Positions 5,794-43,459 of a DNA stretch of 64,000 bases are shown piece after piece. The position numbers and the translations under genes are program-made. Below the pieces are notes generated by a model that was not told the DNA's origin, did not search any database, and saw only the letters and a list, made by a program, of their open reading frames with translations. The stretch comes from a virus. Location: positions 63,288 through 127,287 of IMG/VR virus record IMGVR_UViG_3300032334_001923; one strand, written 5' to 3'. Numbering within the stretch: the stretch's first letter is position 1; each line of letters opens with the position of its first letter.

Positions 5794-6471
5794 ATGCCAA
5801 GTGAAAAAACATACCTTGGTAAAGTAGTTGACAATAAAGATCCACTTTACCAAGGAAGAGCAAAAATAAACGTTTTTGGAATCTTTGATGATATCCCAAC
5901 AGAGGATCTACCTTGGGCCGAGCAGATTTCCGGTTTATCTTTTGGTGGATCTTACGGAGGTGGTAACACTTCTATTCCCAGAATAGGTTCTGTGGTAGCA
6001 GCTCATTTTGAAGATGGTAATTACTACAAGATTAATTATCACTACATTAAAGAGATCTCTGAGGATCTTCTGGCAAAGCTTAAGGAGGAGAATTCATACG
6101 AGCTTGGCCAGTATTTAATATACGACTCTGAATCTAAGCCTGGTCCACTTCATCTATATTACAATCAAAAAGATGGATTTGTTTTTGAACTCGGAGATGC
6201 TAAGGTTCAACTCGACACTCAAAACGGAGGAAATCTTAGAGTTGTTATCAAAATGGGCAAGGATGAAATACGGATGGAAGATAGCAAAGTGATTGTTAAT
6301 TGTAATAACATAGAGCTCGGTGAAGGTGCTACAGAGAAGCTTGTACTCGGTAACAAATTCTTACAACTTTTCAATCAGCATACACACCCGACAGGGGTAG
6401 GTCCTTCAGGTGTTCCTGTAGTTCCAATGGTTGATGCACAGCATCTAAGTCAAGTATCTAAAACTAAATAA
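5794..6471 (+). CDS. Baseplate central spike (gp5 N-terminal OB-fold/gpV-like)
   Basis: DPLYQGRAKINVFG...LPWA OB-fold motif; C-terminal HTH (HxH) spike-apex motif; no lysozyme domain. Confidence 0.8.
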   Translation: MPSEKTYLGKVVDNKDPLYQGRAKINVFGIFDDIPTEDLPWAEQISGLSFGGSYGGGNTSIPRIGSVVAAHFEDGNYYKINYHYIKEISEDLLAKLKEENSYELGQYLIYDSESKPGPLHLYYNQKDGFVFELGDAKVQLDTQNGGNLRVVIKMGKDEIRMEDSKVIVNCNNIELGEGATEKLVLGNKFLQLFNQHTHPTGVGPSGVPVVPMVDAQHLSQVSKTK

Positions 6472-11881: not shown

Positions 11882-13609
11882 ATGAATATTTTTAAGAAGA
11901 ATAATATCCTAATCAACGGATTACTAAACGACACCTTCGTTTTTTTGCAGGACACCTATAACCAAACTGCAAATCTTTTCACGGTGGCTTCTGCTTGGGG
12001 ACAAATTCTCTTTGTGGTTCAGAATCTTTCCCAGATGATTCTCTACTTTATAGAGGATTCCATTACCGAGCTCAATATGGAACAAGCCACTAGAGATTAT
12101 TCGGTTAGAAGTTTGGCTAGAATAGCAGGCTATGATCCAGGAAGAGCAACAGCATCACAGGGTGAGGTTTCTATTGCTTGGAATGCAAGAGAATCTGACG
12201 TTGGAGGAGGATCTATAATATTAAATAATTACACACAGATCAGATGCCAAGAAAACGGTAAGCTTTATTCTTTAATTTTTGGATCACAAAAAGTAACCAT
12301 TCCTCTTACCGGAGGTACCTCTCCTTTAAGATGTAAGATAGCTCAGGGATTTTTTCAGAGCAACATTGTAACCGGAACTGGACAGGCACTACAGAGCTTC
12401 AATATACCAGCACAATCTGGATCTTATATAGACCAGTTCTATGTTGATGTTTACGTAAACGAGGAAAAATGGAAGAGATATGATTCTTTATATGATATTC
12501 CTCTTAACGGCAAAGGATACCTAGTAAAAACGGGAATACAGGAAGGTATAGACATTTACTTCGGAAACTCATATTTCGGATTAAATCCTCAGAGTGGATC
12601 TAGAATCAGAATAGAATACTTGCAAACAACTGGAGCTGCAGGGAACTCAAAATCGACAAAAGAAAAACCTCTCACCTATAAATTCAACACAACAGGAACT
12701 GACCTATTTGGAAAAGAAGTAGATGTTAACAACTACTTAAATATAATTCCAGGAGTAGATCCTATGTTCGGAACAAATCCAGAATCGACAAATCTAATTA
12801 GACTAGTGGCTCCAAAGACCAGTAGATCTTTTGTTTTTGCAAATGCTCAAAACTATGAAATTTTCCTAGATAAACTTGGTATATTTTCTCAGGTCCAGGC
12901 ATTCTCAACTTTTGATGATGATTATCTTGATGACGATAACGTTGTTTACATTTATCTTGTCCCTGACATAACTTTAAACATAAGTTCAAACGAGGATTAT
13001 TTCAGTGTTCCGGTAACTGACTTTTTATTATCTCAAGCTCAAAAAACCGCTGTATTGAATCTTATTCAGGATTCAGGATCAATGATAGCAACCACTGTTG
13101 TTAAAATAGTCGAGCCTATTATCACTAGATACACAGGAAACGTCATCATGACAATGTTCGAGGGCTACGATCCAGAGACTATAAAAACAGAAATCAGAAA
13201 AAGGATCTCAACTTATATGTTAAATCTTAAAAGAAGGGACACCATTCCTAAATCTGATATAATAGCAATCATAGAAGGTATTGATGGTGTTGACTCTGTT
13301 AATTTCTTTTTCGTCGGACAGAAAAATGAAGCAAACCAGTTAGCAGTTCAAAATTTAAGTAACGTTTCAGATATTCAGAAAGATCAGATCTTAGGAATGA
13401 ACGACTTTGGAGACATTGTAATTGGAAGAAATGAACTGGTTGTTTTAAGAGGTGGATGGTCAGATAGAAACGGGACAGTGTTTACTGAAAGTATCGTTGA
13501 TGGCAAACCCGGTCCTTTAAACATTAGTATCTCCTCAGTGGTAAAGAAAAACTACAGAGCAGATCTTAATGCTGAAACCAAAAATGTAATTATAAAATCT
13601 TCTACATAA
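11882..13609 (+). CDS. Baseplate wedge gp6/baseplate-J-like protein
   Basis: ATRDYSVRSLARIAGYDPGRATAS; RIRIEYLQTTGAAGN; ES..LIRLVAP...NYE motifs. Confidence 0.85.
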   Translation: MNIFKKNNILINGLLNDTFVFLQDTYNQTANLFTVASAWGQILFVVQNLSQMILYFIEDSITELNMEQATRDYSVRSLARIAGYDPGRATASQGEVSIAWNARESDVGGGSIILNNYTQIRCQENGKLYSLIFGSQKVTIPLTGGTSPLRCKIAQGFFQSNIVTGTGQALQSFNIPAQSGSYIDQFYVDVYVNEEKWKRYDSLYDIPLNGKGYLVKTGIQEGIDIYFGNSYFGLNPQSGSRIRIEYLQTTGAAGNSKSTKEKPLTYKFNTTGTDLFGKEVDVNNYLNIIPGVDPMFGTNPESTNLIRLVAPKTSRSFVFANAQNYEIFLDKLGIFSQVQAFSTFDDDYLDDDNVVYIYLVPDITLNISSNEDYFSVPVTDFLLSQAQKTAVLNLIQDSGSMIATTVVKIVEPIITRYTGNVIMTMFEGYDPETIKTEIRKRISTYMLNLKRRDTIPKSDIIAIIEGIDGVDSVNFFFVGQKNEANQLAVQNLSNVSDIQKDQILGMNDFGDIVIGRNELVVLRGGWSDRNGTVFTESIVDGKPGPLNISISSVVKKNYRADLNAETKNVIIKSST

Positions 13610-14159: not shown

Positions 14160-17100
14160 ATGTCCAGTTTTTTCTATAGAAGACTTAATTTTTTCGATAA
14201 ATCAGGTAAACCCCTGAATTTCGATTATATCGGCCCTACGGGTCCAACACCGTTGGACACCAACTTTACGTATATTAGTCAACCCAATCCTTATGGAATG
14301 GGACATGCTTATGTTGCTAATCTCAGCAGCAGCACCCCTTTAATTCAGATTCATATACAAGACCTAAACGGATTCTCTATAGAATCTTGGGCGGATGAGG
14401 CAATATCTTTTCTGGAACAGGGAGCAGATGTTTATTTTCACGGTAGCATCGTAGGCCAACAAGAATTTAAAGGTAAAGTACAGTCAATAACCAAAGTATT
14501 AGGTTTGGATTATGTTCAGATCAATTTTGCTCCTGGCTACGTTTCTGGACAAACGATTATTAGTAACGGTAATCAGATTTACTTTAGAACAACATACGAT
14601 CACAGACCAGGAGGTTATTATAAAGGAAACATATATTTTGAACCAGTTTCATCTGGACTCTATGAAAATGAACAGGTTTTTATAGTTCAGAATTTTCTAT
14701 ACCAACCTAACGGACAGTACTACTACGGTCTTCCTCATACAGGGGTAACCGGTGCAACTGGATCTGGAAAATGGAGAAGTAGATGGTACAATGACAAATA
14801 CGGTGAAACTGATGTTTCTGAAATAATTTTCAGCTACAAGATAGAGGATCAGCTGGAAGGTGGAGACGGCCAACCGCTCATCGTTAGCTATCCGAACATA
14901 CTTTTTGAAGTGGATAAAAATTCATTCGACTATGTTTACGGAAACGGTTACATAGGAACGAATAGTATAACATCCTCAGCTTTAGCGGTGGACGTTGCAT
15001 TAAACACAACTGATCTTGCAGCTAATATTTATGAAAGAAAACTCATTATTGAGGACGTAACAGGGGGAACTGGATCTACTCCTCAGAAGGTTATAGAAAT
15101 AGATTTTTACGGTCAGGTTATAGGGGAGGACGAAAGATTTGATGTTATGCTTCAGAATATGGGCAGAGCATTTTATCAAAGTGATTCTGTTATTCTTAGA
15201 GATCATGATCCCAAAGAGCCCCTTCCCAACTATATAGAGATAAACGAAAAAAGAAAAGAACTTCTAATAGCGGGAGAAGAGATTTTTCCTTATATAGGAA
15301 GTTATAAAGGTCTAATCAATGCTATAAAGTTTTTCGGATATCAGGATCTTAGGATTAAAGAATATTGGTTAAATCTTCAGTATAAAAAAGTTGAATCAGA
15401 TTCACCAATCAAGAAGAATCAGGAATTTCTTAACGGTCTAAAGAGACAACAACAAACTCAAGGATATAGTCAGAGTTACCAGATTGCGGACGTATTAGAT
15501 AATCCAAATTCAGGAAAGTATAAATTAGTTCAGACGTATGGTCCTAATAAGGACGGAGAATACGTTTTAAGTGTTGCTTCTGAAGACACATTGCTACCTA
15601 GTAGAACTTTTAAAAAGACCTCTTTATTTGGTCTTTACTACGATCTAAATAAAGATTCTGGAGAAGTTGATGATAATGGATATCCTGTCGTTGTAGATGC
15701 TTTTAAATTTACTCAGGAGGAGGTTTTAGTAAAACTATTCGCTCTTAAGGAGAGACTTAAAAGTGATTATCTACCACTGAATGCTAGAATAGTTGATATC
15801 ACGGGTGAGGGTATTTACTTTGATGTATACAACACCAGATCATGGACTGATGTAATGCAAAGACCTGATATTGATGCTGGTCTTTATTTCGATGTTAGAT
15901 CTAATCCGGATTTCGGGTTTATTGAGGACCTTAGAAATTTCTCAGTTCGTCCACTTTCAACCTCTATACAAACGCCATCTAATTATTTCAATCAGTACAG
16001 CGCAAGTGTTAGTGTATCCGGTGGAACAGGTAGCGCAATATATTTTAACGGAATCCCAGCAACTGGACCAAACCCAACCTTATATGTAACCCAAGGTAAA
16101 ACTTACGAATTCACTATAGGAACAACCGGGTTTAATTTGTATTTAACAACTGATCCAACCCTGAGCTCTGTGGTAGATCCCGTTGGATTACAAAACAATG
16201 GAGCCACCTCTGGAGGATCTCCGATAGAGTGGTATGTGAATCCTCTTCAGGGATCACCTGTTTATTATTTCTCTCCTCAGAATCCTAGTTTATTAAATGG
16301 ACAAATAGTTGTTCAAACATCGGAGATATCTGATCTTGGAAATATCATAGATCCTCTTTCAGCTCAACAGAACTACAGTGCAGACCAAAACACTTCTTTA
16401 CTGAGTGCGATAGAGAATTTCTATAGATTGAAGCAACAGGGTGAAATAAAGGAATTAGGAGACGGTAAATACGATCCTCCGGCCTACATAGATCCTTCCA
16501 CAGGACTCACGTATAGAACTTCTATAGGAACTCCGATCGTTCTAGAATTGATCTTAGATAGATGGAGCTGGGACGAACTTAATGTTAACTGGACATCAAT
16601 CATTTTACCTATTTTTAGGGTAGGCGACAGAGTTCAAGTTAGAGACCCAAACAATTTTGCATATCAAACTTTCGGAACTGTTACTTCGGTTAGTTATTCT
16701 ACCGGTGTTTATGACGTGTTCCTTGATAGCTTTTCTACTACTCTACAATATGACGAATCCCAATTATTTGCTAGCCTTCAGAATTATGGAATTCTCAACT
16801 GGGCAAATATAGATTTTTCTAACATGGTTGAGATTGAGTGGATTCTCGATAAGGAGACAACCCAATCTGGAAGTCCTTATCATTTTGAATTTAGAGGTCT
16901 TATTCTTGATTTCTATAAGTTAGCTCACTTTGTTCCTTATACTGGTGAATATAAAGTCACCTGTAATATTTATGATGCCTTTAATGTTAAGAGCACAGTC
17001 ATAAATCACGGAGCTCTTGTTGTTAGTCCTAAGACTATAGAAATAGATGCTTGGACTAGATACAGAGAATCTCAGAGTTATGAGTGGATTAATACAATAA

Positions 17101-19001
17101 AACAATGGGACGACTATCAGTCTATCTGGGAGTATCCTGCTGAAGGATCTTCTATAGAGGTTTTAGAAAAAACAATACCTAGCGAAATCCTAGATTTTGC
17201 AACATACGGAAATAAATCAGAAGATGGACAGGACGTTTATGTTAAAGTTAAAACTAAACCGATCGGTGCAACTGGTGCTATAGTTCTAACCCAAACAAAT
17301 CTTGTGATCACTGATATCTCATCATATCAGATCTCTCTTGGACAATATGGATATGCAACAGTTACAACATCAACTCCACACAATCTTTCAACTGGAGAGG
17401 AAGTTACGATTTTAAATACGATACCTCAGATAATTGGTAGATGGTCAGTAATAGTTCCATCAGGATCTACTAACACCTTTAAAATACCATTAGTTATAGA
17501 AAACACCTGGAGTGGAATTTTAGTTCAAACATCTCCTAATCGATTATCCGTCGACACCACCCCAGCTGGATATCAAAATCAATATCTGACAGGAGCTGGA
17601 ACGATAATGATAACCGTTGGCGGAAGGGATATCGGATCATCAGATTCTGGTGACTCCCTATATAAAACGGCAAATGCTATAGTATCGTCGGTAAACTCTT
17701 TAAAAACTTATCCCGATTACTTCGCTTCTTGTACTGATCCTAGTCAAGATCCAGTTACAATTATAATATCAGCTCAGGATAGTTTAGGAGCAGATCAGAA
17801 TGGTGTCTCGATGAACGTGACTTCAACGGGTTCTGTTTCGATTGTTTATTCTTCTCCGAATCTCGATTATGGGGTTAGTCCAACTGAAACCTATGAATAT
17901 TGGTACGAGTCAAGCGGTGTTTTACCTAATGCTAATCTTAAATACTGGGGAACTAAAAAATTAGATTGGCAGATTTTCACCGACAGCACATGGGATAATT
18001 CTTATGCTCACGGATGGTATGATTTTGAATTCAATAACGATTGGCTGGGCGGATATGAACTTCATAATATAAAGCCAGGTGATAATGTAAAACTCAGTAC
18101 AGGTAGTCCGACATATCCATTTCCTATTGGGATAACAATACAGCCTGGTGTTTCTGCTTTAACTGTTCAGGAGGTTGCTGATCAGCTTAATTCATCTTCT
18201 GATAGATACGTTACTGATTTTTACTATAGACCTATTCCGAACGAGTCCGGAAGTCTTCCCATAGATTCACCTCCTATAAACTTGGATATAAACAACTTCG
18301 GAATTCCGAATTCTTTATATCCTCCGCCTATTTCAGTAATCGGAGGAAGCCAGATCCTTATCGCTTCTTTTGGTATAACCGGAGGAACATCTATAACCAC
18401 AACAACAAGTACCACAACAACAAGTACTTCGACAACAAGTACTTCGACAACAAGTACTTCGACAACAAGTACTTCAACAACAACAAGTACAACCACAGCT
18501 CCTCCTCCTGATTGCTCTCTATCAGGAACGGCTTCTATGGTTTATCCGACGACTACAACAACTAGTACGACTACAATTGCTCCGACGACTACAACAACTA
18601 GTACGACTACAATTGCTCCGACGACTACAACAACTACAACTATCGCACCTACAACAACTAGTACAACCACAGCTGGAACAGTTACGGTTCTGTTTGAGAC
18701 AATTGTAGACGGTAGTGCTAGTGGTTCGACTACTTTTAGACTAATGAAAAATGGACTTACAGTCGTAAATATCATAAACCTCGACGTAAGTAACACCTAT
18801 ACATACAATGTTGGCGACACCATCGAAGCACGATTGATAACGGCTTCAGGTAACGTATATAGTGAAGTAGCTATCTATCAAGATCCATTTATCCTTCTAG
18901 ATACCTCAGGATATGGCGGAGGCACTCGTATTGCAGGACCTATTACAACATCAGGCGGACAAAGCTATACTGTTGAATGTGTAGCTAGTGCATTACCTTA
19001 A
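14160..19001 (+). CDS. Large baseplate wedge (gp7-like) protein with cupredoxin-like and KOW-like domains and Thr/Ser mucin-like stalks
   Basis: YIGSYKGLINAIKFFGY..L.IKEYW; NPTLYVTQGKTYEF; FRVGDRVQVRD; long Thr/Ser tracts near the C-terminus. Confidence 0.6.
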   Translation: MSSFFYRRLNFFDKSGKPLNFDYIGPTGPTPLDTNFTYISQPNPYGMGHAYVANLSSSTPLIQIHIQDLNGFSIESWADEAISFLEQGADVYFHGSIVGQQEFKGKVQSITKVLGLDYVQINFAPGYVSGQTIISNGNQIYFRTTYDHRPGGYYKGNIYFEPVSSGLYENEQVFIVQNFLYQPNGQYYYGLPHTGVTGATGSGKWRSRWYNDKYGETDVSEIIFSYKIEDQLEGGDGQPLIVSYPNILFEVDKNSFDYVYGNGYIGTNSITSSALAVDVALNTTDLAANIYERKLIIEDVTGGTGSTPQKVIEIDFYGQVIGEDERFDVMLQNMGRAFYQSDSVILRDHDPKEPLPNYIEINEKRKELLIAGEEIFPYIGSYKGLINAIKFFGYQDLRIKEYWLNLQYKKVESDSPIKKNQEFLNGLKRQQQTQGYSQSYQIADVLDNPNSGKYKLVQTYGPNKDGEYVLSVASEDTLLPSRTFKKTSLFGLYYDLNKDSGEVDDNGYPVVVDAFKFTQEEVLVKLFALKERLKSDYLPLNARIVDITGEGIYFDVYNTRSWTDVMQRPDIDAGLYFDVRSNPDFGFIEDLRNFSVRPLSTSIQTPSNYFNQYSASVSVSGGTGSAIYFNGIPATGPNPTLYVTQGKTYEFTIGTTGFNLYLTTDPTLSSVVDPVGLQNNGATSGGSPIEWYVNPLQGSPVYYFSPQNPSLLNGQIVVQTSEISDLGNIIDPLSAQQNYSADQNTSLLSAIENFYRLKQQGEIKELGDGKYDPPAYIDPSTGLTYRTSIGTPIVLELILDRWSWDELNVNWTSIILPIFRVGDRVQVRDPNNFAYQTFGTVTSVSYSTGVYDVFLDSFSTTLQYDESQLFASLQNYGILNWANIDFSNMVEIEWILDKETTQSGSPYHFEFRGLILDFYKLAHFVPYTGEYKVTCNIYDAFNVKSTVINHGALVVSPKTIEIDAWTRYRESQSYEWINTIKQWDDYQSIWEYPAEGSSIEVLEKTIPSEILDFATYGNKSEDGQDVYVKVKTKPIGATGAIVLTQTNLVITDISSYQISLGQYGYATVTTSTPHNLSTGEEVTILNTIPQIIGRWSVIVPSGSTNTFKIPLVIENTWSGILVQTSPNRLSVDTTPAGYQNQYLTGAGTIMITVGGRDIGSSDSGDSLYKTANAIVSSVNSLKTYPDYFASCTDPSQDPVTIIISAQDSLGADQNGVSMNVTSTGSVSIVYSSPNLDYGVSPTETYEYWYESSGVLPNANLKYWGTKKLDWQIFTDSTWDNSYAHGWYDFEFNNDWLGGYELHNIKPGDNVKLSTGSPTYPFPIGITIQPGVSALTVQEVADQLNSSSDRYVTDFYYRPIPNESGSLPIDSPPINLDINNFGIPNSLYPPPISVIGGSQILIASFGITGGTSITTTTSTTTTSTSTTSTSTTSTSTTSTSTTTSTTTAPPPDCSLSGTASMVYPTTTTTSTTTIAPTTTTTSTTTIAPTTTTTTTIAPTTTSTTTAGTVTVLFETIVDGSASGSTTFRLMKNGLTVVNIINLDVSNTYTYNVGDTIEARLITASGNVYSEVAIYQDPFILLDTSGYGGGTRIAGPITTSGGQSYTVECVASALP
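18396..18497 (+). repeat. 15-bp tandem repeat encoding about 34 consecutive Thr/Ser
   Basis: Unit acaagtacttcgaca (TSTST), about 4 copies plus aca runs. Confidence 0.95.
18546..18672 (+). repeat. 36-bp tandem repeat encoding PTTTTTSTTTIA mucin-like units
   Basis: ccgacgactacaacaactagtacgactacaattgct twice exactly, then degenerate copies. Confidence 0.95.
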
Positions 19002-19012
19002 AAATTTAAAAC

Positions 19013-20008
19013 ATGGCATCAGTATTAATAACATTAACAACAGCAGGAACAGATACGGGACCTTTCAACCTGTATTCAAATACGGATGGATACGTTACCG
19101 CTTTTCAGACTAACGTGTCTAAAATTCTTCTTATTGGTGGATATACATCTACCCTAGTTCCAAATGGAACAACCACCATAAGAGTGAAGTCAAACAACCC
19201 TGGACTTTGTACGAATTATGTGGATCTTGCAGTTTCTGGTATGACAACTACAACAACTACCACAACTGCTGCACCTATTGGATTCTATTGGCTTAACGGA
19301 GGATCAGCAAATTCGTTTAGTGGAGCTTTCATGAGATTGACAAGTCCTTACACGTCTTCCAATTTCTTGAACAATCAATCCCTTACAAGCGGAACAACAA
19401 AAGCTTGGACTTCATCCCCTCCCATTCCTCTTGCATCTACAAATTCTAGTTTTTTCTTTACTGGTGTCCCTAGTAGTCTTAGTTTGACCGGAAATGCTAC
19501 TCTCACGATGCTACCAAGTAATACTAACACTAATACAAATCTTATTGTAGGTGCGACTTCAGCAAGTCTTAGTTGGACTGGGATTAATACCACGGGTCAA
19601 ACAAGCATGCAGGTTACTATGTATACTAGCACTGCTGCGACAACTAGTACGACTACAATTGCTCCTAACTCTTATGTGTTAGATTATTCTGCTAATAAGA
19701 ATATTCAGACGTGGACTTTGTCCATAAATGGATCTGCATCTTTCTATAATAGTGCTTTCCCGGCGGCTACTATTAATTATTTCTATATACCTACAACATA
19801 TTCTGGAACATTTGTTCTTGCTTTTATTATGTTAGGCACACCTTCGTCTGTTAGTGCAGTCTTTACAGGAAGCGGAAGTGGAGGTCCTCATACTGCTACT
19901 ACGGTCTACCAGTCTAGTTATGGAATTTATAGTGTTTATAAATCGACTTGGACAAGTAAAACTATTGGTGGAGGACCAGGAAATGGAATGTATATCACAA
20001 TATTTTAA
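19013..20008 (+). CDS. Thr/Ser-rich putative virion surface protein with TTTT linkers
   Basis: N-terminal domain (TAGTDTGPFNLYS...CTNYVDL), then TTTTTTTTAAP and TTSTTTIAP linkers separating small domains. Confidence 0.6.
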   Translation: MASVLITLTTAGTDTGPFNLYSNTDGYVTAFQTNVSKILLIGGYTSTLVPNGTTTIRVKSNNPGLCTNYVDLAVSGMTTTTTTTTAAPIGFYWLNGGSANSFSGAFMRLTSPYTSSNFLNNQSLTSGTTKAWTSSPPIPLASTNSSFFFTGVPSSLSLTGNATLTMLPSNTNTNTNLIVGATSASLSWTGINTTGQTSMQVTMYTSTAATTSTTTIAPNSYVLDYSANKNIQTWTLSINGSASFYNSAFPAATINYFYIPTTYSGTFVLAFIMLGTPSSVSAVFTGSGSGGPHTATTVYQSSYGIYSVYKSTWTSKTIGGGPGNGMYITIF

Positions 20009-20020
20009 CAATTAAAAAAT

Positions 20021-20995
20021 ATGCAAAAAAAAGTAATATTTATTAGTGTACAGCCAGACGATCCATACTTCTTTTGGCAGGTCGAGGTTTTTATACATAA
20101 TTTTATGAAATCTGGTGTTCCTTCCCGCAATATACATGTTCTTTTTTCCTATGAGAATGAACCAAGTCAGGGATTATTGGAGTTAGCTCAGAAATATAAA
20201 TTCATAAAATTCTTTTTTTACAAAAAAACTCCGGTTGATAATTTTGGATACATTCCTATTTTAAGACCGGATGCTCTAGAACAGCACTTTAGAAAATTCC
20301 CTCATCTAGCTAACGAGATTTTTTTCTATCACGATTCTGATATAATCTTTAGAGAACTTCCTAATTTCGATTCTTTAAAAGATGATGAATTCTGGTATCT
20401 TAGTGACACGATCTCCTATATAGGTGGAGACTATATTAAATCTAAATCAGATTCTCTGCTAACAGAGCTCTGTCAGGTAGCAGGAATCGATAGATCGGTA
20501 GTTGAAGAAAACGAGAATAATTCAGGGGGAGCACAATATTTACTAAAAGAAATAGATGCTGACTATTGGGCTGATGTGAATAAAGTAACCCTGGATCTTT
20601 ATAAATATATGTCAGAGAGGGAAGTAGAAGAGAGAAAGACATTAACAGAGGAGCAGCTAATATCTTACAACCCTATTCAGAAATGGTGCGCTGATATGTG
20701 GGGGGTTTTATGGTGCGGATGGAAGAGAGGACTTAAATCTAAGATCACTCCGGAATTTGGATTCAGCTGGGGCTCTTCAAGTTCTCAAGAGTGGAGTTAT
20801 TTTAAGATCATGCACAATGCAGGAGCTATGAATAATGAAGGAGGAAAAAGATTTTACAAAGCGGAATACATGACAAAAAGTCCTTTTGATGCAGATCTAT
20901 CGTCAATAGATCCTGCTAATAACACATGGAACTATGTTCAAGCAATACTCTCAGCAAAAGAGAAGAGAAAGTCTCTTTGGGAGGGGTCTTTATAA
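20021..20995 (+). CDS. Glycosyltransferase resembling GT96 peptidyl-serine galactosyltransferase / GT95 HPAT protein O-glycosyltransferases
   Basis: WQVEVFIHNFMKSG, YIPILRP, DxD motif HDSDIIF, GGAQYLL and KWCADMW, in the order seen in plant/algal SGT1/HPAT enzymes. Confidence 0.65.
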   Translation: MQKKVIFISVQPDDPYFFWQVEVFIHNFMKSGVPSRNIHVLFSYENEPSQGLLELAQKYKFIKFFFYKKTPVDNFGYIPILRPDALEQHFRKFPHLANEIFFYHDSDIIFRELPNFDSLKDDEFWYLSDTISYIGGDYIKSKSDSLLTELCQVAGIDRSVVEENENNSGGAQYLLKEIDADYWADVNKVTLDLYKYMSEREVEERKTLTEEQLISYNPIQKWCADMWGVLWCGWKRGLKSKITPEFGFSWGSSSSQEWSYFKIMHNAGAMNNEGGKRFYKAEYMTKSPFDADLSSIDPANNTWNYVQAILSAKEKRKSLWEGSL

Positions 20996-21019: not shown

Positions 21020-22786
21020 ATGGCAAACACACCCACAGGGATAAATCAGGGAGATTTTATTTATTTCTACGACACGAGCACAGGAAACGTGACCGGGTGG
21101 GATTGGTATTTTCCTGGAGGTACTCCAACAGGAAGTTTTTCTTTCGCTCAGTTGGTTAATTATTACAATGTTAATACAAACGGATATCCCGTTAGTCTTA
21201 GTGTTACCGATGGCGTTATAACATCATCAGTTACAGAGAATAATTTGATAGTGGTATCACCAGAACAGATATCACCTTCACTTTTAATCAGTACCCCGAT
21301 TGGTCCTTTCCCTTCAGGCACTGCTAATCTGAGTGAAAGCATTACTTTTACAGCAACCGGTGGAACCGGATCTGGGATTCAATATTACACGTGGAACCTA
21401 CCAGGTACAGCAGGATTCACGGGAACGTCACCTTCAGTAACCACCAACATTTATGACTGGTTGACTCTGACAGGGTCTGATCTTGGTGCTTTGTATAGCA
21501 CATATTTTGCATCTGCTCAGGTTTCTTTATCGACAGTGGTTGGTAATACCTTTGTTGCATCTAATTCGCTAACGTATAATAAGAGTGGAATAGCCGAGAG
21601 CTTCAATCTTTGTGATGTTAATGTGACTGGACCTACAGCTCATAACATCCAATACTATCAAGTTTCTCCTTACAATCTAGCAACTATAAACACGTCAACT
21701 ATTGGTTTACTAGGATCTTCATATCTAGTCATGGAAACAAAACAACTAGATTCTAGCTACACTATAAATAACTTGTCATCCCATGTGGAAGGTGAGACTG
21801 TTAATTTTTACTCTCCGAGTATGGACATAATGACCAATTCAGAGGGAAGAATCCCTGGACTGGTCGTGGCTTCAGGTTCTGCTTTTAGTGTGATGGGGGT
21901 ATCGGTTCCTCCTCTCAACAGATACACGGTTGGTAAGTATATGTGGCCTAATGATATTAGCGGAGTTCTAGGGAATCAATTTTATTTTGCTGACTCGTCA
22001 GGAGCATTAACAACCCCTTTAACTGTGGGAGCATCAGGAGATTATACCAAAAGATGCTGGTCTGATGATGCCCTTGATCTCTTCTTGAACGATGTCTCTT
22101 ATGCTAGTGTCAGTTCTAAAAGCTGGGAGAATTCTCAATCAGCTTTGCCCTCTAAGGTTAACGGTGTCGATGGCGGATTAAACTCTCGTGGACCTTGCTA
22201 TCCAGCAAGCATCGCAATGGGTGGAATTGATGTTGCGATTACCCTTAGATTTTACGGAGGACCTACTAGATCATGGACTGGTTCATCGCTTTTAGGAAGC
22301 TTGGTCATTAACGTAAGCACTTCGAATGCGAGAGGAAATTCACCAGACGGAACTATTCTGCTGGCTCAGGACACTGGATATTACACACAAAAGGGATTAG
22401 CTTTCAAACTGAACTCTGCTTTCTCCTCCGCAAATTTAACCCCTTATATGAGTGCAGTGGCTAGCAAATATCTTGCAACATACGAACTTATGCCAGAAGT
22501 TGACCGTGATGAATTTAACGGGCTTCAGGTTTCAATAATTGATGAGTATGTTACTAGCGCCAAAGGGTCTTTACCTATACTGAGTGCGGGAAGCATCCCC
22601 GATGGCTACTTTATAACCAAAGTTGAATTTACTAATACCGCTGGAAGTTGGACTAGTCCTTTTACTGGTTATCCCTCATATAATTGGCTGGGTTTTTATT
22701 TAGACGGTCTAGACTTATTTCTTTTCAACCTGGCAAACTCAACATATGATTCAGGACCAAGAAGAGGTTGGTTTTTCACAGGATAA
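21020..22786 (+). CDS. PKD-domain virion structural/adhesion protein
   Basis: FYDTSTGNVTGWDWYFPGGTP...YPVSLSVTDG is a PKD motif; a second Ig-like unit YYTWNLPG follows. Confidence 0.7.
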   Translation: MANTPTGINQGDFIYFYDTSTGNVTGWDWYFPGGTPTGSFSFAQLVNYYNVNTNGYPVSLSVTDGVITSSVTENNLIVVSPEQISPSLLISTPIGPFPSGTANLSESITFTATGGTGSGIQYYTWNLPGTAGFTGTSPSVTTNIYDWLTLTGSDLGALYSTYFASAQVSLSTVVGNTFVASNSLTYNKSGIAESFNLCDVNVTGPTAHNIQYYQVSPYNLATINTSTIGLLGSSYLVMETKQLDSSYTINNLSSHVEGETVNFYSPSMDIMTNSEGRIPGLVVASGSAFSVMGVSVPPLNRYTVGKYMWPNDISGVLGNQFYFADSSGALTTPLTVGASGDYTKRCWSDDALDLFLNDVSYASVSSKSWENSQSALPSKVNGVDGGLNSRGPCYPASIAMGGIDVAITLRFYGGPTRSWTGSSLLGSLVINVSTSNARGNSPDGTILLAQDTGYYTQKGLAFKLNSAFSSANLTPYMSAVASKYLATYELMPEVDRDEFNGLQVSIIDEYVTSAKGSLPILSAGSIPDGYFITKVEFTNTAGSWTSPFTGYPSYNWLGFYLDGLDLFLFNLANSTYDSGPRRGWFFTG

Positions 22787-22810
22787 CAAACTTATAATAT
22801 ATAATTTCAA

Positions 22811-25800
22811 ATGCCAAGTGCTTCATTAAATATCAATCAAATAGCTTTAGACTCTCAGTTTTATGTTTGGGGATCGGGAGAAGATGTCAGAAGATTCAAC
22901 GGATCTTCATGGGAATATTACAACTATCTAAATTCAGCTGTGCCTGGACCCTTTGGTGGTTCATTTTCACTGGACACCAGAACCGTCTCTATAGACCCCG
23001 AGGAGAAACTTTGGTGTGGAGTTGCTGAAGGCCCAACATCAGGGTTCAATGAAGTTGCGGTTTTCTATATCAACACAAACGACGTTGATGAAGGTGAATC
23101 TTGGAGATTTTCAGATCTTGGAGATTTTGGAGGAATCCCACAAGAAACATCTTTCGTCTATGCTTGTCCATTTGGTGATGACGTTTACGCTTTTGTTACC
23201 CCTCTTAATGGTATAGGTGGAACTGCAGGAATTTCTAATTATACTAGATTCTACGGGGTTACCGGAGGGAGACTTTTTTACCATCTGAAAGAGACGGGTC
23301 AATGGAAAGAGACAATTCCAAATTATCCTTGGCCACATATCTATGACATGCAAGCTAAAGGTATAGACGGAAAAAGTTATTTCTATTATGTTGCAACCAA
23401 CGAGGGACTTATGACAATTCCTCAGGGAAGTCTTTCCACTGTTGAACTTACTGACGGAACTCAAATAATTAAACAAGCACAGGTTTACAACACCCACACA
23501 TCAGGAATAATCTCTGATAACGTTTATGCTCTTGACCTTGACGAAGACGGGAATCTTTGGATGGGTACAGATAAAGGCCTTTCATTTTTTAACGGGCATG
23601 GATTCTGGAACTATGGAACAACTGGACCTGTGACTGCGATTAAATCTAGACCTAACGGCCACGTGTTCTACTCAACAGGGGATGGCGAGCTTGGCCAGGG
23701 TGCTGGTCTTTGGCATTTTAACGGCAGTACACACACTTTATTTACAAATTCTAATTCTACCCTTTCAAGCAATAATATCATCGATATTGAGCTCGTAGGA
23801 GGCAATATAGATCAGTCTGGACTTATTGCTCACGAGAATGCCCTTTGGGTTCTAGAGTACAATGTGCTTTCTTCTTTTGATTATGATATTCCACATGTTT
23901 ACGGGTCTTCCAAGTATGCTGGAGCTACCGGATGGAATTTCGTCTACTACAGTCCTACTGGAGGAACTAGTGCTCCTTTGCCTAAGGTGAACAAATATAC
24001 TTGGACATATCCAGAGTGGAGGGTTTATCAAGATGATTATCTTGCTTCCAAACATCCTGGACTTGATCCGAGGAATTTATTCATGACCACGAAGCTGAGC
24101 GCTATAGCAGACGGCAGAGCAGGAAAACAGCCTTATTGGGATAATTTCCCTCTTCCAAGTTACGAACAGGAAGTTTGGGAAGGCAAGGTAACAGGTCCAA
24201 CTTGGATAAAGGAAATAGCTCTAGTCGGAACTGATGCAGGATATGATTATCCTGATTTAAAAATAACTTGCTCTACAACTCTAAACGTTGATGGATCAAC
24301 TAAATTGTATATTGGTGGAGAAATCTCCGGAAATACGACAGGGTATCTAGGTTATTATAATGATACCGAGCTAGCAACAGTTGTGAATCTAAATCCCACA
24401 ATGGGAGGAAGTGCTGCTAGTGTGCTAGATTCCAATTCAGGATTTTTTGCTAAAATGGGATTCATTGCTTGCTATGATGAAGATGGGTATGTTGAATCCG
24501 TACTTCCTTTTAGAGGTTACTCAACTAAAATAGATTCACTGTCACCTTCTGCAGATGGGAATTCAATCATAGCTACCGGATCTTATAATTGGCTAATAGA
24601 AAACGGACCTTATGTTTATCCCGGATGGCTTGGAGCAACAAATACTTATTTAGGTGGGCCTACAGGAGCTCCTATAGGTCTAACGAATATTAACGTTCCT
24701 GGTGCAACCACTGGGATTTACAACTGGATAACTTCAGTGGGTCAGACTGGGTCTAATTTCTTCTACACTTATAGTGGAGGATCAACAAGTACTCTAGTAT
24801 ACATCGGGGTTCTCGGACCTGGAGCTGGTAACCCCGGAGGAATCGATTTCGAATACAATGTGGGAGCTTTAACCCAATATGCCCATGATGTGAGTGCTAT
24901 AACGGTCAACTTTATTGACTTCAACATGACTGATTGGAGTAATGCTTATGAGCAACTCCCTACCGGATACGTGATAACAATTACTGACTATGTCGGAACA
25001 GGGGAAGTTCTTGCCAATTATACAATAGATTCAATAAATCTAGGGAATAACGGACCGGGAAGCACCGCAAAATTTAACGTTACATATCAAGGAGGAACCT
25101 CAGGGAACATAGATTTCAATGTTATTACGTATTCTTTTCTTGGATTTGATGTTTATTCGTATCTGACTAGCTGCTTCCCTCTTGTACCTGCACTAGAAAC
25201 AATTAGCAGTCAAGAATCTGCAAATATACACGCCCCTGGAGTTTTTGTAGCTCAGATTGAGAAAGACCTTGGCGATATAAGTTCATTTGCTGGTATAACT
25301 GGAGATTACACTTCTGATATCAGGAAGTCTTATAGAATAACCGACTTTAGAACTTTCCCTTCAGTTAACCAAGTCCCTTCCTCAACATCAGAAACTTTAA
25401 ACTCGATATACTCAAAATCTGATACCAGTGCTAATTTTGTAAATGTCGCTATAGTTTCAGGAGCTACTGCTGCTCCTAGTTTATCTACATTGAAGAATTC
25501 GTGGAACAGAAACAATGATAATCCATCTACTGTTGAAGTTTTAAAAGATCCGCTCTCTCAGAACTTCATGTCTTATGTGAGATTAAATGCTTCTGATTTT
25601 TCTTTACAGACAACTGTTAATGCTGAGGGATCTACATCTGGGTACTTATACCAAGGAATAAATTCTTTGAACTCTCTATCCAATGAAGATACTGTTTTAA
25701 TCACGGGTAATTCGTGTAAAGATTTCTCAATAGGTGGAATGGGATTAACTGGACCAACCTCATCTGTTCCTTATCCTTATTTTGCAATAATTTCAACGTC

Positions 25801-26917
25801 AGGTACAGGTGTTACTGGGTATTTTATGAACGATGCCCAGCCTGGAACAGGATCTATAAATTCATCCAAGGATAGATCAACATATTACGTGACCTCAATA
25901 TATGGTGGATCTGGTTCTTACTTTAGGGAAGATTTTGTAGCAGGATCTACCGGCACTTATCTTCTAACCGCTCAGATAACTGAACAAGGTGTTGTTAAAA
26001 ATACTTTTGGTCCTCATTTGGAAACCTACGCTAGTAACATACAGAAGATTTCAGCTTCAGAGATCATGCCTAATGGCCAGTATTTTATTTCTTATTCCGA
26101 CTATAGCATTGCCTCCTTTCACCTACAAAAATTCTTAAAATCAACTCAGGATGGAAGAATAACTGATACGAATTATTTCAGCGGACCTGATCCTTCTACA
26201 TCTTTATTTAATTTTTCGGTATCTGATAAATCCGATATTTATATGTCTATAACATGGGGGAATTCCACCACAGCGCCTTTACCTTTTGGGTATAACTATC
26301 CTTATGGACTAGGCTCAGGAAACTCACAAGTTATTAAAGCTGAGCAATATAAGCCAGATTTAGGAATAAACTTAGGTGGTATAATTTCGAGACCCGGATC
26401 AGGCGCTTGGACGTGGTGTGATGTCCACTCAACAGACAACTATTTTGAAATACCTTTAATGTCTACGGTTATCCTAAACAACTATGCTTCCAATATCTAT
26501 GGTAAGCAAAATAACGTTTGGTCTCTAATAGATTCTTCTACTGATAATGATTTGCTGACTGTGAAATCTACACCTTACTTTATCTACACATTTACCCAAC
26601 CTGGATTCTATACGGTGAACAATCAAGTTGAAGATTCTCAAGGAAATGTTTATGAGGTTTCTAAACCTGGATTTATTAAAGTTGTGGACCATCTGGCTAA
26701 GAGACCTGATGATCTAAGACCTGAATTTGTAGATTCAACTGACTATGGATACCCTCCGGGAGTGCCTTTCTATGAAAGAGATGAGGAAGCTAAGAAACTT
26801 GCAGCCGAGCTATTAAAAGATGAAAAAGAAATCTTAAGTCAAGAAATTCAACCATTTGGCTCTGATCTTAAAATAGCTCCTAATCCGGATGCAACGTTTG
26901 ATGAGTATGACTATTAA
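22811..26917 (+). CDS. Large tail-associated protein with beta-propeller repeats and C-terminal PKD-like domain
   Basis: SDNVYALDLDEDGNLWMGTDKGLSFFNG and LSSNNIIDIE propeller repeats; YTFTQPGFYTV near the C-terminus. Confidence 0.65.
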   Translation: MPSASLNINQIALDSQFYVWGSGEDVRRFNGSSWEYYNYLNSAVPGPFGGSFSLDTRTVSIDPEEKLWCGVAEGPTSGFNEVAVFYINTNDVDEGESWRFSDLGDFGGIPQETSFVYACPFGDDVYAFVTPLNGIGGTAGISNYTRFYGVTGGRLFYHLKETGQWKETIPNYPWPHIYDMQAKGIDGKSYFYYVATNEGLMTIPQGSLSTVELTDGTQIIKQAQVYNTHTSGIISDNVYALDLDEDGNLWMGTDKGLSFFNGHGFWNYGTTGPVTAIKSRPNGHVFYSTGDGELGQGAGLWHFNGSTHTLFTNSNSTLSSNNIIDIELVGGNIDQSGLIAHENALWVLEYNVLSSFDYDIPHVYGSSKYAGATGWNFVYYSPTGGTSAPLPKVNKYTWTYPEWRVYQDDYLASKHPGLDPRNLFMTTKLSAIADGRAGKQPYWDNFPLPSYEQEVWEGKVTGPTWIKEIALVGTDAGYDYPDLKITCSTTLNVDGSTKLYIGGEISGNTTGYLGYYNDTELATVVNLNPTMGGSAASVLDSNSGFFAKMGFIACYDEDGYVESVLPFRGYSTKIDSLSPSADGNSIIATGSYNWLIENGPYVYPGWLGATNTYLGGPTGAPIGLTNINVPGATTGIYNWITSVGQTGSNFFYTYSGGSTSTLVYIGVLGPGAGNPGGIDFEYNVGALTQYAHDVSAITVNFIDFNMTDWSNAYEQLPTGYVITITDYVGTGEVLANYTIDSINLGNNGPGSTAKFNVTYQGGTSGNIDFNVITYSFLGFDVYSYLTSCFPLVPALETISSQESANIHAPGVFVAQIEKDLGDISSFAGITGDYTSDIRKSYRITDFRTFPSVNQVPSSTSETLNSIYSKSDTSANFVNVAIVSGATAAPSLSTLKNSWNRNNDNPSTVEVLKDPLSQNFMSYVRLNASDFSLQTTVNAEGSTSGYLYQGINSLNSLSNEDTVLITGNSCKDFSIGGMGLTGPTSSVPYPYFAIISTSGTGVTGYFMNDAQPGTGSINSSKDRSTYYVTSIYGGSGSYFREDFVAGSTGTYLLTAQITEQGVVKNTFGPHLETYASNIQKISASEIMPNGQYFISYSDYSIASFHLQKFLKSTQDGRITDTNYFSGPDPSTSLFNFSVSDKSDIYMSITWGNSTTAPLPFGYNYPYGLGSGNSQVIKAEQYKPDLGINLGGIISRPGSGAWTWCDVHSTDNYFEIPLMSTVILNNYASNIYGKQNNVWSLIDSSTDNDLLTVKSTPYFIYTFTQPGFYTVNNQVEDSQGNVYEVSKPGFIKVVDHLAKRPDDLRPEFVDSTDYGYPPGVPFYERDEEAKKLAAELLKDEKEILSQEIQPFGSDLKIAPNPDATFDEYDY

Positions 26918-27570
26918 GAGTCTTTGAGAGCATTAAGAACTTCCTCAACAATCGGATCTCTATGATTTGTTTTCAATGAGATCATGGAAATTCCCTCTAT
27001 AAAGCTTAGCTTTTTAGAAAGCCAATCAAATCCACTAAGTTTTTTGTCTTTTAGATCTATCTGGGAATTATCTCCTACGAATATCATCTTTGCACCCATA
27101 CAAAGCCTTGTGATAATCAGTTCAAGTTGGTTTTGTGTTATGTTCTGAGATTCGTCTATAACAACACAACAATCTGAAAAGTTTCTACCTCTCATAAATC
27201 CAATGGGTATAACCTCTATATTTCCCTCCATGATCTCTTTGTCAATCTTATCCTTGCTGTAAAGAACATACATGTTATCATAAATGGATGCTGTATATGG
27301 AGCTAGCTTAGCGTCCTTGTCACCAGGAAGAAATCCAATATCTTCACCTGCTGTTACCGCGGGACGTGTGAGGATTATCTTTTTTACCTCTTTCTTAAAA
27401 AGAAGATCCAGTGCCACTTGGGCTGCTAGAAGAGATTTACCACTTCCTGCCTGTCCCTTTAAAAAGGATATCTTTGATTGTAGAATTTTGTCCTTCGCTG
27501 CCTTTTGCTCTTCGTTAAGTGCGATGTTAAATTTAATAGGGTTTTTAGGCTTTTTTGTGGAATTTTGCAT
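26914..27570 (-). CDS. phoH: PhoH-family ATPase
   Basis: Walker A GQAGSGKS, ILTRPAV, GFLPGD, FMRGRNF, VIDESQN, GDNSQID, HRDP. Confidence 0.95.
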   Translation of the reverse strand: MQNSTKKPKNPIKFNIALNEEQKAAKDKILQSKISFLKGQAGSGKSLLAAQVALDLLFKKEVKKIILTRPAVTAGEDIGFLPGDKDAKLAPYTASIYDNMYVLYSKDKIDKEIMEGNIEVIPIGFMRGRNFSDCCVVIDESQNITQNQLELIITRLCMGAKMIFVGDNSQIDLKDKKLSGFDWLSKKLSFIEGISMISLKTNHRDPIVEEVLNALKDS

Positions 27571-40096: not shown

Positions 40097-41683
40097 ATGC
40101 CTAATACCAATATACAAGCACTTAATTACGGTGACAATCAAAATCAGCTGATAAACAAGCTGAATAATAATTTTGACGAGGTTGTTGAATTCCACGGGGG
40201 AAGCCAGGGTTTGACCGGACCAACAGGAAGTAGAGGTCCAATTGGTGAATCTGGTACTATCGGAATAACTGGTCTAACTGGACCTAGAGGAACAAGATGG
40301 TTTATTAACGCTAGTGTTAGTCCATCAGGCTCTGGAAATTATGTGGTCGAGGGAGATTATTGGATAGAATCTGTTACGGGACAAATCTACATTTTCACCG
40401 ATACCGGGTGGACATACACTGGATATAACTTCAATGCAACTGGATCTCTATTTTCTTCCATAACTAGTAATTATGATGCTTCCATGAATCCCTCATCGGG
40501 ACTCACTGGAGCTTCTATTGTAGAGAATCAAGTTAATCCTGAAAAATACACATTTGTAGTATCTGATAATGCACCAGAGTCGGACATTTTAAATGAGCTA
40601 CTTTCTAAATTTCTTATTTCTACAAATCCTAATAGTAACTCTGGTCCTGTTTTAGAGTTTTCTAAAAGCAACATAGAGGATGGTACGATCTCTGATTATT
40701 TACAACATCCTACTTTTAAATGGGCTAATTTCACTTCAGGTGACGATTCTATAATACTTAACGTTCCTGGAGGTATTTTTACTTTGGGTGCAAGTGGAGG
40801 ATTTCAATCCTCTTCGAGAGACTATAATATAAATGCTTCAACTTCATTATCGGTAGAGTATGGTGCGACATCCGGATCTGGAATATTTTCAACCGGTGGA
40901 TTTCAAATTAATGCACCTTCCGGTGATTTCAATTTAATAAGTTCTTTTTATAGTGTTACCGGAGGTTCCGGAACCTTCTCTAAACCTATAGAATCTACTT
41001 CAACACTTCCTGGTTCTGTTTCTTCCCTTTATGTTTCTATAGGAGGAACGTCGGGATTTAGAAGTACTAGATCTGGAGACAACTCAGGAACACTCTCGCA
41101 TAATGTCTACCACATTAAACTTGAAAATAGTGACGGAACACAGTTTTATCTAGACACAAAAGGAAAACTAAAGACCAATAAGATCGACGAGGGACTTACA
41201 ATTCCGGTTAATACCCCTGGTATAACAGGCGCTAATAATTGGTTTGTGTTATCTGCACCGTATACTCCCGATAGTGCATACACTTCTTTGGAAAATGGTA
41301 ATAACATAATATTTGCTCCGAATATAGGATCTACTGCTTCGTATGTCGGGGTTGCTTTTAACACTCTGATTGATTATTCGCTCGGTTCAACCGGAGGGGT
41401 TCTTCCTGGAGAATCTATAGATATAAATGTTTACTGCGGATCTGATCAATATGTTGGTTATTGGGAAAATCAAGTAGATGGAGCTAATTATACCGGATTT
41501 AAGTATATTGGATATGGTTCGACCGCAGGGGTTACCACAGCGGTTACACTTCCATTTAAAGCTCAAGCTATAGATTTTACACTAACCAAGGGAGTAACTG
41601 GTCCTTTAACCACAGTTTTTTATAAAGCATATAACACCGGAGTTGGTGGCGCTGGTGCCTCGGGGGGATATTTCAGTTTCTGA
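40097..41683 (+). CDS. Tail fibre-like protein (paralogue 1) with short collagen-like GxxGxx repeat
   Basis: GDNQNQLINKLNNNF, then GLTGPTGSRGPIGESG...GPRGTRW, then GDYWIE. Confidence 0.65.
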   Translation: MPNTNIQALNYGDNQNQLINKLNNNFDEVVEFHGGSQGLTGPTGSRGPIGESGTIGITGLTGPRGTRWFINASVSPSGSGNYVVEGDYWIESVTGQIYIFTDTGWTYTGYNFNATGSLFSSITSNYDASMNPSSGLTGASIVENQVNPEKYTFVVSDNAPESDILNELLSKFLISTNPNSNSGPVLEFSKSNIEDGTISDYLQHPTFKWANFTSGDDSIILNVPGGIFTLGASGGFQSSSRDYNINASTSLSVEYGATSGSGIFSTGGFQINAPSGDFNLISSFYSVTGGSGTFSKPIESTSTLPGSVSSLYVSIGGTSGFRSTRSGDNSGTLSHNVYHIKLENSDGTQFYLDTKGKLKTNKIDEGLTIPVNTPGITGANNWFVLSAPYTPDSAYTSLENGNNIIFAPNIGSTASYVGVAFNTLIDYSLGSTGGVLPGESIDINVYCGSDQYVGYWENQVDGANYTGFKYIGYGSTAGVTTAVTLPFKAQAIDFTLTKGVTGPLTTVFYKAYNTGVGGAGASGGYFSF

Positions 41684-41689
41684 TATATA
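41682..41689 (+). promoter_or_regulatory. Candidate late promoter GATATATA
   Basis: 21 nt before ATG 41711. Confidence 0.55.
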
Positions 41690-41710
41690 GCATAAGCTAA
41701 GTAATATAAA

Positions 41711-43456: not shown

Positions 43457-43459
43457 AAG

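Follow-up and report, generated by a model that had tools for sequence, protein, structure and literature searches.

Background

In the mycobacteriophages Che8, Corndog and Myrna, phage-encoded glycosyltransferases act in the infected cell's cytoplasm on the capsid and tail-tube proteins of the phage itself (Freeman et al. 2023, Cell Host Microbe, via PMC12363180 and PMC11256854). According to the same two articles, glycosylation of mycobacteriophage virions lowers their recognition by antibodies (PMC12363180, PMC11256854). Here we analyse a stretch of 64,000 nucleotides, hereafter the window, from an uncultured virus (IMG/VR record IMGVR_UViG_3300032334_001923, positions 63,288 to 127,287), in which the gene for a glycosyltransferase (GT) directly follows those of two baseplate-module proteins bearing tracts rich in threonine (Thr) and serine (Ser). 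The mycobacteriophage system is the closest functional precedent for this locus; virion glycosylation is proven there and predicted here. The mycobacteriophage GT genes are located close to the distant end of the genome and not beside their substrates (PMC11256854), whereas the enzyme of the window adjoins the genes encoding the tracts. Our analysis establishes the fold of this enzyme, its conserved catalytic-type residues, the position of its gene in the operon, and a tight evolutionary coupling of enzyme and tracts. Inferring acceptor, donor and linkage, we consider it probable that the enzyme O-glycosylates the Thr tracts of the phage's own baseplate-module proteins.

Coupling of the glycosyltransferase to Thr tracts

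A preceding examination of the letters of the window and their translations (the sequence-only reading) had proposed that the GT is linked to mucin-like Thr tracts on virion-module proteins, and had named a lack of correlation between enzyme and tracts as the observation that would speak against this. When tested, a correlation was found instead, both among close relatives (44 of 44 loci concordant) and across 76 more diverse loci (78% versus 3%).

For the diverse phages, open reading frames (ORFs) were called at 80 IMG/VR loci carrying a homologue of 37–65% identity, 76 distinct loci were counted, and a tract was defined as at least 8 Ser/Thr in 10 residues. The gene immediately preceding that of the enzyme (position -1) encoded a tract at 59 of the 76 loci, a share that fell to 24% at position -2 and 11% at position +1, and to 3.4% (26/774) among genes three or more positions away (Fisher p 2e-54 for the -1 gene against the distant genes). 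When the tracts were masked, 63 tract-bearing -1 proteins were distributed over 14 homology clusters unrelated to each other, and the conserved synteny of a single gene pair therefore offers no explanation for the association.

Close relatives were collected using the baseplate wedge gene of the window as an anchor, which yielded 44 loci (wedge protein 59–100% identical) whose downstream flank was complete over 10 kb. The intervening genes encoded 30 or more tract residues at all 21 loci with the enzyme and at none of the 23 loci without it, leaving zero discordant cases. When mapped onto a maximum-likelihood tree of wedge proteins, the distribution of the enzyme needs 4–5 state changes, of which well-supported branches force at least 4, and even the sister taxa L092 and L096 differ in its presence. 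The orthologues of the giant tract protein in the enzyme-less relatives (1392–1417 aa) align to residues 1 to ~1408 of the window protein and end where its tract begins. This identifies the unit of gain and loss as a cassette, in which the tract with its terminal domain is accompanied by the small Thr-linker protein and by the enzyme. In five enzyme-less relatives the enzyme family was absent from the whole contigs, including a 100%-complete genome of 348,582 bp, in a search that recovered the genome of the window as positive control with an E-value of 2e-131; this complete enzyme-less genome also contains zero runs of seven Thr codons.

A comparable arrangement was encountered in five cultured phages of Gram-positive bacteria, where the homologue lies directly after the gene for a major capsid or tail protein, and poly-Thr tags end the capsid and/or tail proteins. 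In Lacticaseibacillus phage iLp84 the capsid protein ends in ...PTTTTTTTSK and the tail protein in ...ETTTTTTTSK, and there is in addition a 125-aa protein of almost pure poly-Thr. Tags are likewise found on the head protein gp11 and the tail tube gp18 of Clostridium phage phiCTP1, on gp45 and gp50 of Enterococcus phage phiFL1A, on the capsid and tail of Lactococcus phage CHPC836, and on the tail of Enterococcus phage VPE25. The Thr run is the sole feature common to the tagged proteins of the cultured phages. Chryseobacterium phage MA9V-3 has poly-Thr tracts in its -1 and -3 genes. These observations provide strong support for a functional coupling between the enzyme and Thr tracts on virion-module proteins.

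The two tract-bearing proteins

In the window, three consecutive genes on the same strand, separated by gaps of 11–24 nt, encode products of 1613, 331 and 324 aa, the last being the enzyme (Table 1). The sequence-only reading had described a run of about 34 straight Thr/Ser residues together with PTTTTTSTTTIA repeats in the first of these, which it termed gp7-like, and TTTT linkers in the second, and both features are borne out by the translations. In the giant 1613-aa protein the tract opens after ...GGTSI with 34 unbroken Thr/Ser residues, as counted on the translation, and continues after a short spacer with PTTTTTSTTTIA, PTTTTTSTTTIA, PTTTTTTTIA and PTTTSTTTAG, before giving way to a C-terminal domain of 106 aa. 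In BLASTP comparisons this domain matched neither the -1 tract proteins at the GT loci nor any domain of the 331-aa protein.

The 331-aa protein has a beads-on-a-string organization, with a conserved N-terminal beta-sandwich domain and two Thr linkers. An alignment of 14 orthologues (A3) showed conservation of the N-terminal domain and of the ensuing G(I/M)TTTT linker, with hypervariability of the remainder, that is, of the middle part between the linkers and of the C-terminal part; the structure model is confident for the N-terminal domain only. As a separate observation, the variable C-terminal part of this protein in two relatives (L122:17107-18307 and L123:17093-18289) begins with CLVADTLI..., ends in L123 with ...THNK, and by eye in A3 resembles a Hint/intein-type domain. 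The 331-aa protein had no match in Pfam or PHROG, and for both tract proteins nothing rose over threshold in Pfam and NCBIfam scans.

Tracts satisfying the above definition occur in just 2 of the ~40 plus-strand ORFs of at least 100 aa in the 64-kb window, both directly 5' of the enzyme. Hence, the earlier suggestion that the phage decorates its baseplate and fibres in general is too broad. A run of seven ACN codons occurs three times in the 127-kb record, each time within the two tract genes, and the reversed control pattern occurs zero times; taken with the scarcity of tracts elsewhere in the window, this indicates that the tracts exceed chance. At the DNA level, the tract of the giant protein is encoded by tandem repeats (detected with TRF), with a period of 15 at 18396-18490 and a perfect 36-bp unit repeated 2.6 times at 18545-18636; the feature delineated by the sequence-only reading starts at 18396, the first base of this array. 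A different sample of the metagenome study yielded a contig in which one 36-bp unit encoding PTTTTTSTTTIA is skipped (18544->18581) and 12 bp are inserted after 18649, so that the length of the tract is polymorphic between strains. The tracts associated with the enzyme are composed of Thr and Ser, Pro being merely an occasional spacer. A metatranscriptome run yielded short fragments only, of 85–99% identity, that cover portions of the tract and enzyme genes, which falls short of showing transcription.

Fold and family of the enzyme

The sequence-only reading had placed a DxD-containing GT directly after the tract genes, and all the motifs that it quoted, namely WQVEVFIHNFMKSG, YIPILRP, HDSDIIF, GGAQY and WCADMW, are present in the 324-aa ORF, for which a GT-A fold is confidently predicted and in which the DxD is invariant. 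The protein matches PHROG 4417 over its full length (E 6.5e-61, residues 7-313 on profile positions 3-292 of 293), a family annotated as 'unknown function'. Neither Pfam nor NCBIfam returned a match for the window protein, nor did Pfam-A for the 47 standalone relatives of a family alignment (A1); the GT8 profile (Glyco_transf_8), which forms part of Pfam-A, likewise had no match at E <= 0.1 with any of these proteins.

An AlphaFold2 model built from an alignment of 47 homologues (predicted local distance difference test score 96.3, predicted template modelling score 0.92) has the Rossmann-like alpha/beta/alpha architecture of the GT-A fold. The closest solved folds belong to the retaining GT8/GT24 group, and include glycogenin, the catalytic domain of UGGT, LgtC, GlyE and the xylosyltransferase domain of LARGE1, with a sequence identity of 8–12% and a root-mean-square deviation of 3.4–4.5 A; matches in BFVD include viral GT8 proteins. 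Thus, the family stands structurally beside GT8/GT24, yet fails the sequence profiles of these families. Since the nearest folds are all retaining, our best guess is a retaining mechanism, which would yield an alpha-linked sugar. Sequence searches of the PDB with the protein and with the family profile brought up nothing but TALE-repeat matches pieced together from many sub-threshold stretches, which we judged to be spurious.

In two alignments of 47 and 88 sequences (135 homologues altogether), D105, D107 and K280 never vary, and H265 is invariant or nearly so. The invariant set of the family also comprises W19, Y77, Y133, G170, M226, F248 and F278. The DxD corresponds to D105/D107 within HDSDIIF (nt 20333-20341) and H265 to nt 20813-20815. 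In the model the DxD follows the beta-strand formed by residues 100-103, which is consistent with the DxD site of GT-A enzymes, a metal- and diphosphate-binding motif. The chain starts with MQKKVIFISVQPDD and has no hydrophobic N-terminal segment; as the first beta-strand (model residues 5-12) begins almost at the N-terminus, we read the protein as a soluble cytoplasmic enzyme, which appears to be devoid of a membrane anchor.

The family is large: public data contain 832 clusters of it at 50% identity, and it was encountered at no fewer than 597 IMG/VR loci and in 75 cultured-phage records. About two thirds of 149 representatives below the top match are fusions of 400–990 aa. At least 17 of the 88 scanned homologues contain a second recognisable GT domain (GT7C in 8, GT2 in 6, and GT29, GT6 and GT25 in 1 each), and single fusions were seen with radical-SAM/SPASM or methyltransferase domains. 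The fusions with a second GT would fit an initiating enzyme whose product is then extended into a chain. Among the homologues P0123-P0269 there are fusions in which the enzyme domain is joined to a sialyltransferase-like GT29 domain (E 1e-20), to GT6 or to a radical-SAM/SPASM pair, combinations that hint at elaborate, lineage-specific glycans or at further tailoring.

The sequence-only reading had further likened the enzyme to the eukaryote-type families GT95 and GT96, the hydroxyproline arabinosyltransferases (HPAT) and the peptidyl-serine galactosyltransferases (SGT1), and this label was not confirmed, with no match to the HPAT profile, best solved structures of the GT8/GT24 type and an apparently soluble enzyme. 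Plant enzymes of the HPAT/SGT1 type are membrane-anchored Golgi proteins, and a type II anchor together with a hydroxyproline acceptor defines HPAT. None of the 135 family members scanned against Pfam-A, which contains the HPAT profile PF23452, matched it, and across 38 related viral records there was one sub-threshold HPAT match (E 0.012), located elsewhere than at the enzyme gene. In the genome of the window, PF23452 had no match at E <= 10, and PF23741 (DUF7164) had none either, though control genomes were silent for both and each result is weak alone. Among solved structures, PDB searches by sequence and by fold brought up no member of GT95 or GT96. In protein-language-model space, HPAT is the family name met most often in the neighbourhood of the enzyme (21 of the 30 nearest named clusters), which we treat as a lead only, the share of HPAT members being 10–58% in the two such clusters listed.

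Proposed mechanism and alternative explanations

We propose that a three-part cassette has been inserted in the baseplate operon, comprising a tract with its terminal domain, a Thr-linker protein and a soluble GT-A enzyme of the Mn2+/DxD type. Late in infection, the enzyme would take a host nucleotide-sugar in the cytoplasm and move the sugar onto the poly-Thr hydroxyls of the two proteins encoded just 5' of it, before or during assembly. The tracts would thereby become stiff, hydrophilic and protease-resistant mucin-like stalks, which may keep variable distal domains away from the baseplate. In the 1613-aa protein such a stalk would link a baseplate protein to a small terminal domain, and in the 331-aa protein the linkers would tie the conserved N-terminal beta-sandwich, as an anchor, to the hypervariable distal parts. 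Acceptor and donor sugar are inferred, as are the anomeric outcome and any advantage that the phage would gain. The 46%-complete genome record has no GT2, epimerase or nucleotidyltransferase genes, which says little on the whole phage.

Several points weigh against this account. At 12 of the 76 enzyme loci there is no tract within two genes, which might reflect other acceptors, tract-free uses of the enzyme or imperfect ORF calls, and many of the related loci are phylogenetically non-independent. The completeness of ~46% means that further glycosylation genes or tracts may lie outside the record. The glycan on the tract proteins is a prediction from genomic coupling, and the presumed enzymatic activity rests on fold and conserved residues because the family matches no curated GT profile. 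Finally, genomic coupling constitutes a functional link and not a proof that the tract is the substrate.

In the likeliest of the alternatives, the tracts are flexible linkers, either unmodified or modified by the host, and the target of the enzyme is a different protein of phage or host origin, or the distal domains that the linkers bear. Linkers rich in Thr and Pro are widespread without proof of modification, and both the tract-free enzyme loci and the gain and loss of distal domains along with the tracts speak for such a reading. However, in the cultured siphophages the poly-Thr tags simply form the C-terminus and no distal domain follows, and the tract is the only element common to the 14 unrelated clusters of tract proteins; we regard this alternative as unlikely. 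Another possibility is that the enzyme acts on a host envelope polymer such as O-antigen, teichoic acid or capsule, and thereby blocks superinfection or changes a receptor, with the adjacency of Thr tracts being incidental. It is well known that phages encode GT-A enzymes for modifying the surface glycans of their hosts, and LgtC and WbbM, which function in the synthesis of lipooligosaccharide and O-antigen, are among the fold matches. Against this, the absence of a membrane segment and the location of the gene inside the late structural operon of a lytic-type jumbo phage, or in siphophages among capsid and tail genes with poly-Thr-tagged products, are combined with the enrichment of tracts at the -1 gene and with their perfect co-variation with the enzyme over 44 relatives and at least 4 gain or loss events, and we consider an action on the host surface very unlikely. 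Glycosylation of hypermodified bases in phage DNA as a defence against restriction is extremely improbable: phage DNA GTs are common and new families are still emerging, but the neighbourhoods revealed no association with DNA-modification genes, the enzyme genes lie in structural modules adjoining Thr-tract genes, and the nearest solved folds use protein or glycan acceptors. Both the host-envelope and the DNA readings are weakened because neither explains the co-variation of tracts and enzyme.

Beyond O-glycosylation of the two window proteins by the adjoining enzyme, a wider generalization can be drawn, to which we give even chances. Poly-Thr runs would be portable, encoded 'glycosylation tags' read by one soluble, previously unnamed GT-A family, which would equip capsids, tail tubes and baseplate appendages with mucin-like coats or stalks, with the fused GT2, GT7, GT6, GT25 and GT29 domains extending the first sugar into lineage-specific glycans, as a widespread modular trait. 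Tag reading of this kind may occur in phages as far apart as 30-kb siphophages infecting lactic acid bacteria, enterococci or clostridia and freshwater jumbo phages of 430 kb.

Genomic context

The window is the second half of a virus record of 127,287 bp with a CheckV completeness of 46%. The close relatives reach sizes of 348–434 kb, which places it with tailed phages of the jumbo class, and it derives from an uncultured, jumbo-class freshwater myovirus. Four DNA runs from one metagenome study contain the stretch, and other runs, mostly labelled as freshwater, hold small shares of it only.

Positions 1-50,000 of the window form a single plus-strand structural module, which includes the baseplate genes, several giant proteins and tail-fibre-like genes. 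The two proteins encoded 3' of the enzyme, of 588 and 1368 aa, had just sub-threshold Pfam matches, to Reg_prop and PKD; as the giant protein is followed by similarly sized proteins in relatives both carrying and lacking the enzyme, these genes are context and lie outside the cassette. A scan for promoters and terminators gave a site count no higher than in shuffled sequence.

Table 1. Positions of the cassette and of neighbouring structural genes, counted from the first base of the window
Feature	Position	Strand	Remarks
Baseplate hub	5794-6471	+	PHROG 430
Baseplate wedge subunit (gp6/Baseplate_J-like)	11882..13609	+	PHROG 219, E 2.6e-34; 64 related viral loci, identity 59-100%
Giant protein, 1613 aa	14160-19001	+	Follows the wedge gene
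Core of giant protein, aa 1-1408	14160..18383	+	PHROG 28177, function unknown
Appended Ser/Thr tract, aa 1409-1507	18384..18680	+	Predicted O-glycosylation acceptor
Appended C-terminal domain, 106 aa, at end of Thr stalk, with stop codon	18681..19001	+	Beyond the C-terminus of enzyme-less orthologues
Beads-on-a-string protein, 331 aa	19013..20008	+	Domains joined by two Thr linkers
N-terminal beta-sandwich domain of 331-aa protein	aa 1-75		Conserved
Thr linker 1 of 331-aa protein	aa 75-87, nt 19235-19273		SGMTTTTTTTTAA
Thr linker 2 of 331-aa protein	aa 205-215, nt 19625-19657		TSTAATTSTTT
GT-A glycosyltransferase, 324 aa	20021..20995	+	PHROG 4417
Two structural-module proteins, 588 and 1368 aa, 3' of enzyme	21020..26917	+	Ser/Thr-rich, no tracts

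Three other parts of the window are recorded here in their own right. A PhoH-like gene at 26914-27570 (PHROG 170, E 6e-62) is the sole minus-strand gene within the long plus-strand structural module. At 40097-45766 (+), three successive genes for proteins of 528, 581 and 768 aa have a common short N-terminal tail-fibre motif at residues ~20-90, with a match to PHROG 366 in all three and a best match to PHROG 5073 in the first; the remainder of each protein is different, and they resemble alternative fibres sharing one anchor. At 61985-64000 (+), a protein cut off by the end of the window (671 aa or more) consists nearly entirely of Gly-Ser/Thr-Ser triplets (GSSGTSGSS..., 36% Ser), with a non-repetitive domain of ~170 aa located in the middle and a local GC content of up to 48%, giving it the appearance of a collagen-like fibre.

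Implications

To our knowledge, virion self-glycosylation has been shown experimentally in a few mycobacteriophages only. If the enzyme does glycosylate the tracts, virion glycosylation would become predictable from sequence in many phages, through one unannotated family and its poly-Thr tags, and, on the wider generalization, virion O-glycosylation would represent a widespread modular phage trait that extends beyond mycobacteriophages. The cultured carriers include phages of Enterococcus and Staphylococcus, whose hosts are targets of phage therapy, and dairy phages of Lactococcus and Lactobacillus. Confirmation would be relevant to the stability of phages, to their adhesion to mucus or host glycans and their clearance by the immune system, and to how density in cryo-electron microscopy maps and mass shifts in proteomics are interpreted, and would furnish a minimal tag-plus-enzyme tool for O-glycosylation in the bacterial cytoplasm. 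As cultured phage-host pairs exist, the hypothesis is directly testable.

Comparison with known systems

The mycobacteriophage enzymes (of the Che8 gp110 and Corndog gp38 type) have no detectable sequence homology to the window enzyme, and a tblastn search with the latter against 50,697 phage records gave 75 matches at E <= 1e-5, none of which was a Mycobacterium phage. Poly-Thr acceptor tags and a tight gene-by-gene pairing of enzyme and acceptor, as seen here, do not figure in the texts consulted on the mycobacteriophage system (PMC12363180, PMC11256854). Our literature searches, whose coverage did not extend to the primary mycobacteriophage paper, found no description of the enzyme family or of poly-Thr tags in phages.

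Outside mycobacteriophages, glycosylation of the serine-rich-repeat adhesins of streptococci and staphylococci is initiated by a GT-B pair, GtfA/GtfB, with GT8 enzymes such as GlyE also taking part, and an accessory Sec system exports the substrate. In contrast, the phage system has a single GT-A enzyme and virion proteins that stay in the cytoplasm until lysis. The chlorovirus PBCV-1, with A064R and other virus-encoded GTs, infects a eukaryotic host and places atypical N-linked glycans on its capsid; it differs from the phage system in having no Thr-tract acceptors and in using another enzyme family.

The plant enzymes HPAT (GT95) and SGT1 (GT96) add the first sugar onto hydroxyls of repetitive, extended tracts of cell-wall proteins. 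The likeness to the phage system lies in these tract-type hydroxyl acceptors and in the language-model neighbourhood that names HPAT. However, the plant enzymes act on hydroxyproline or Ser-hydroxyproline, whereas the presumed acceptor of the phage enzyme is Thr, and the phage enzyme differs further from HPAT in its apparent want of a membrane anchor and of a match to PF23452. While phage-encoded virion glycosylation as such is already known, what is new at this locus and in its relatives is the enzyme family, a putative acceptor tag that can be read from sequence, and a wide range of hosts.

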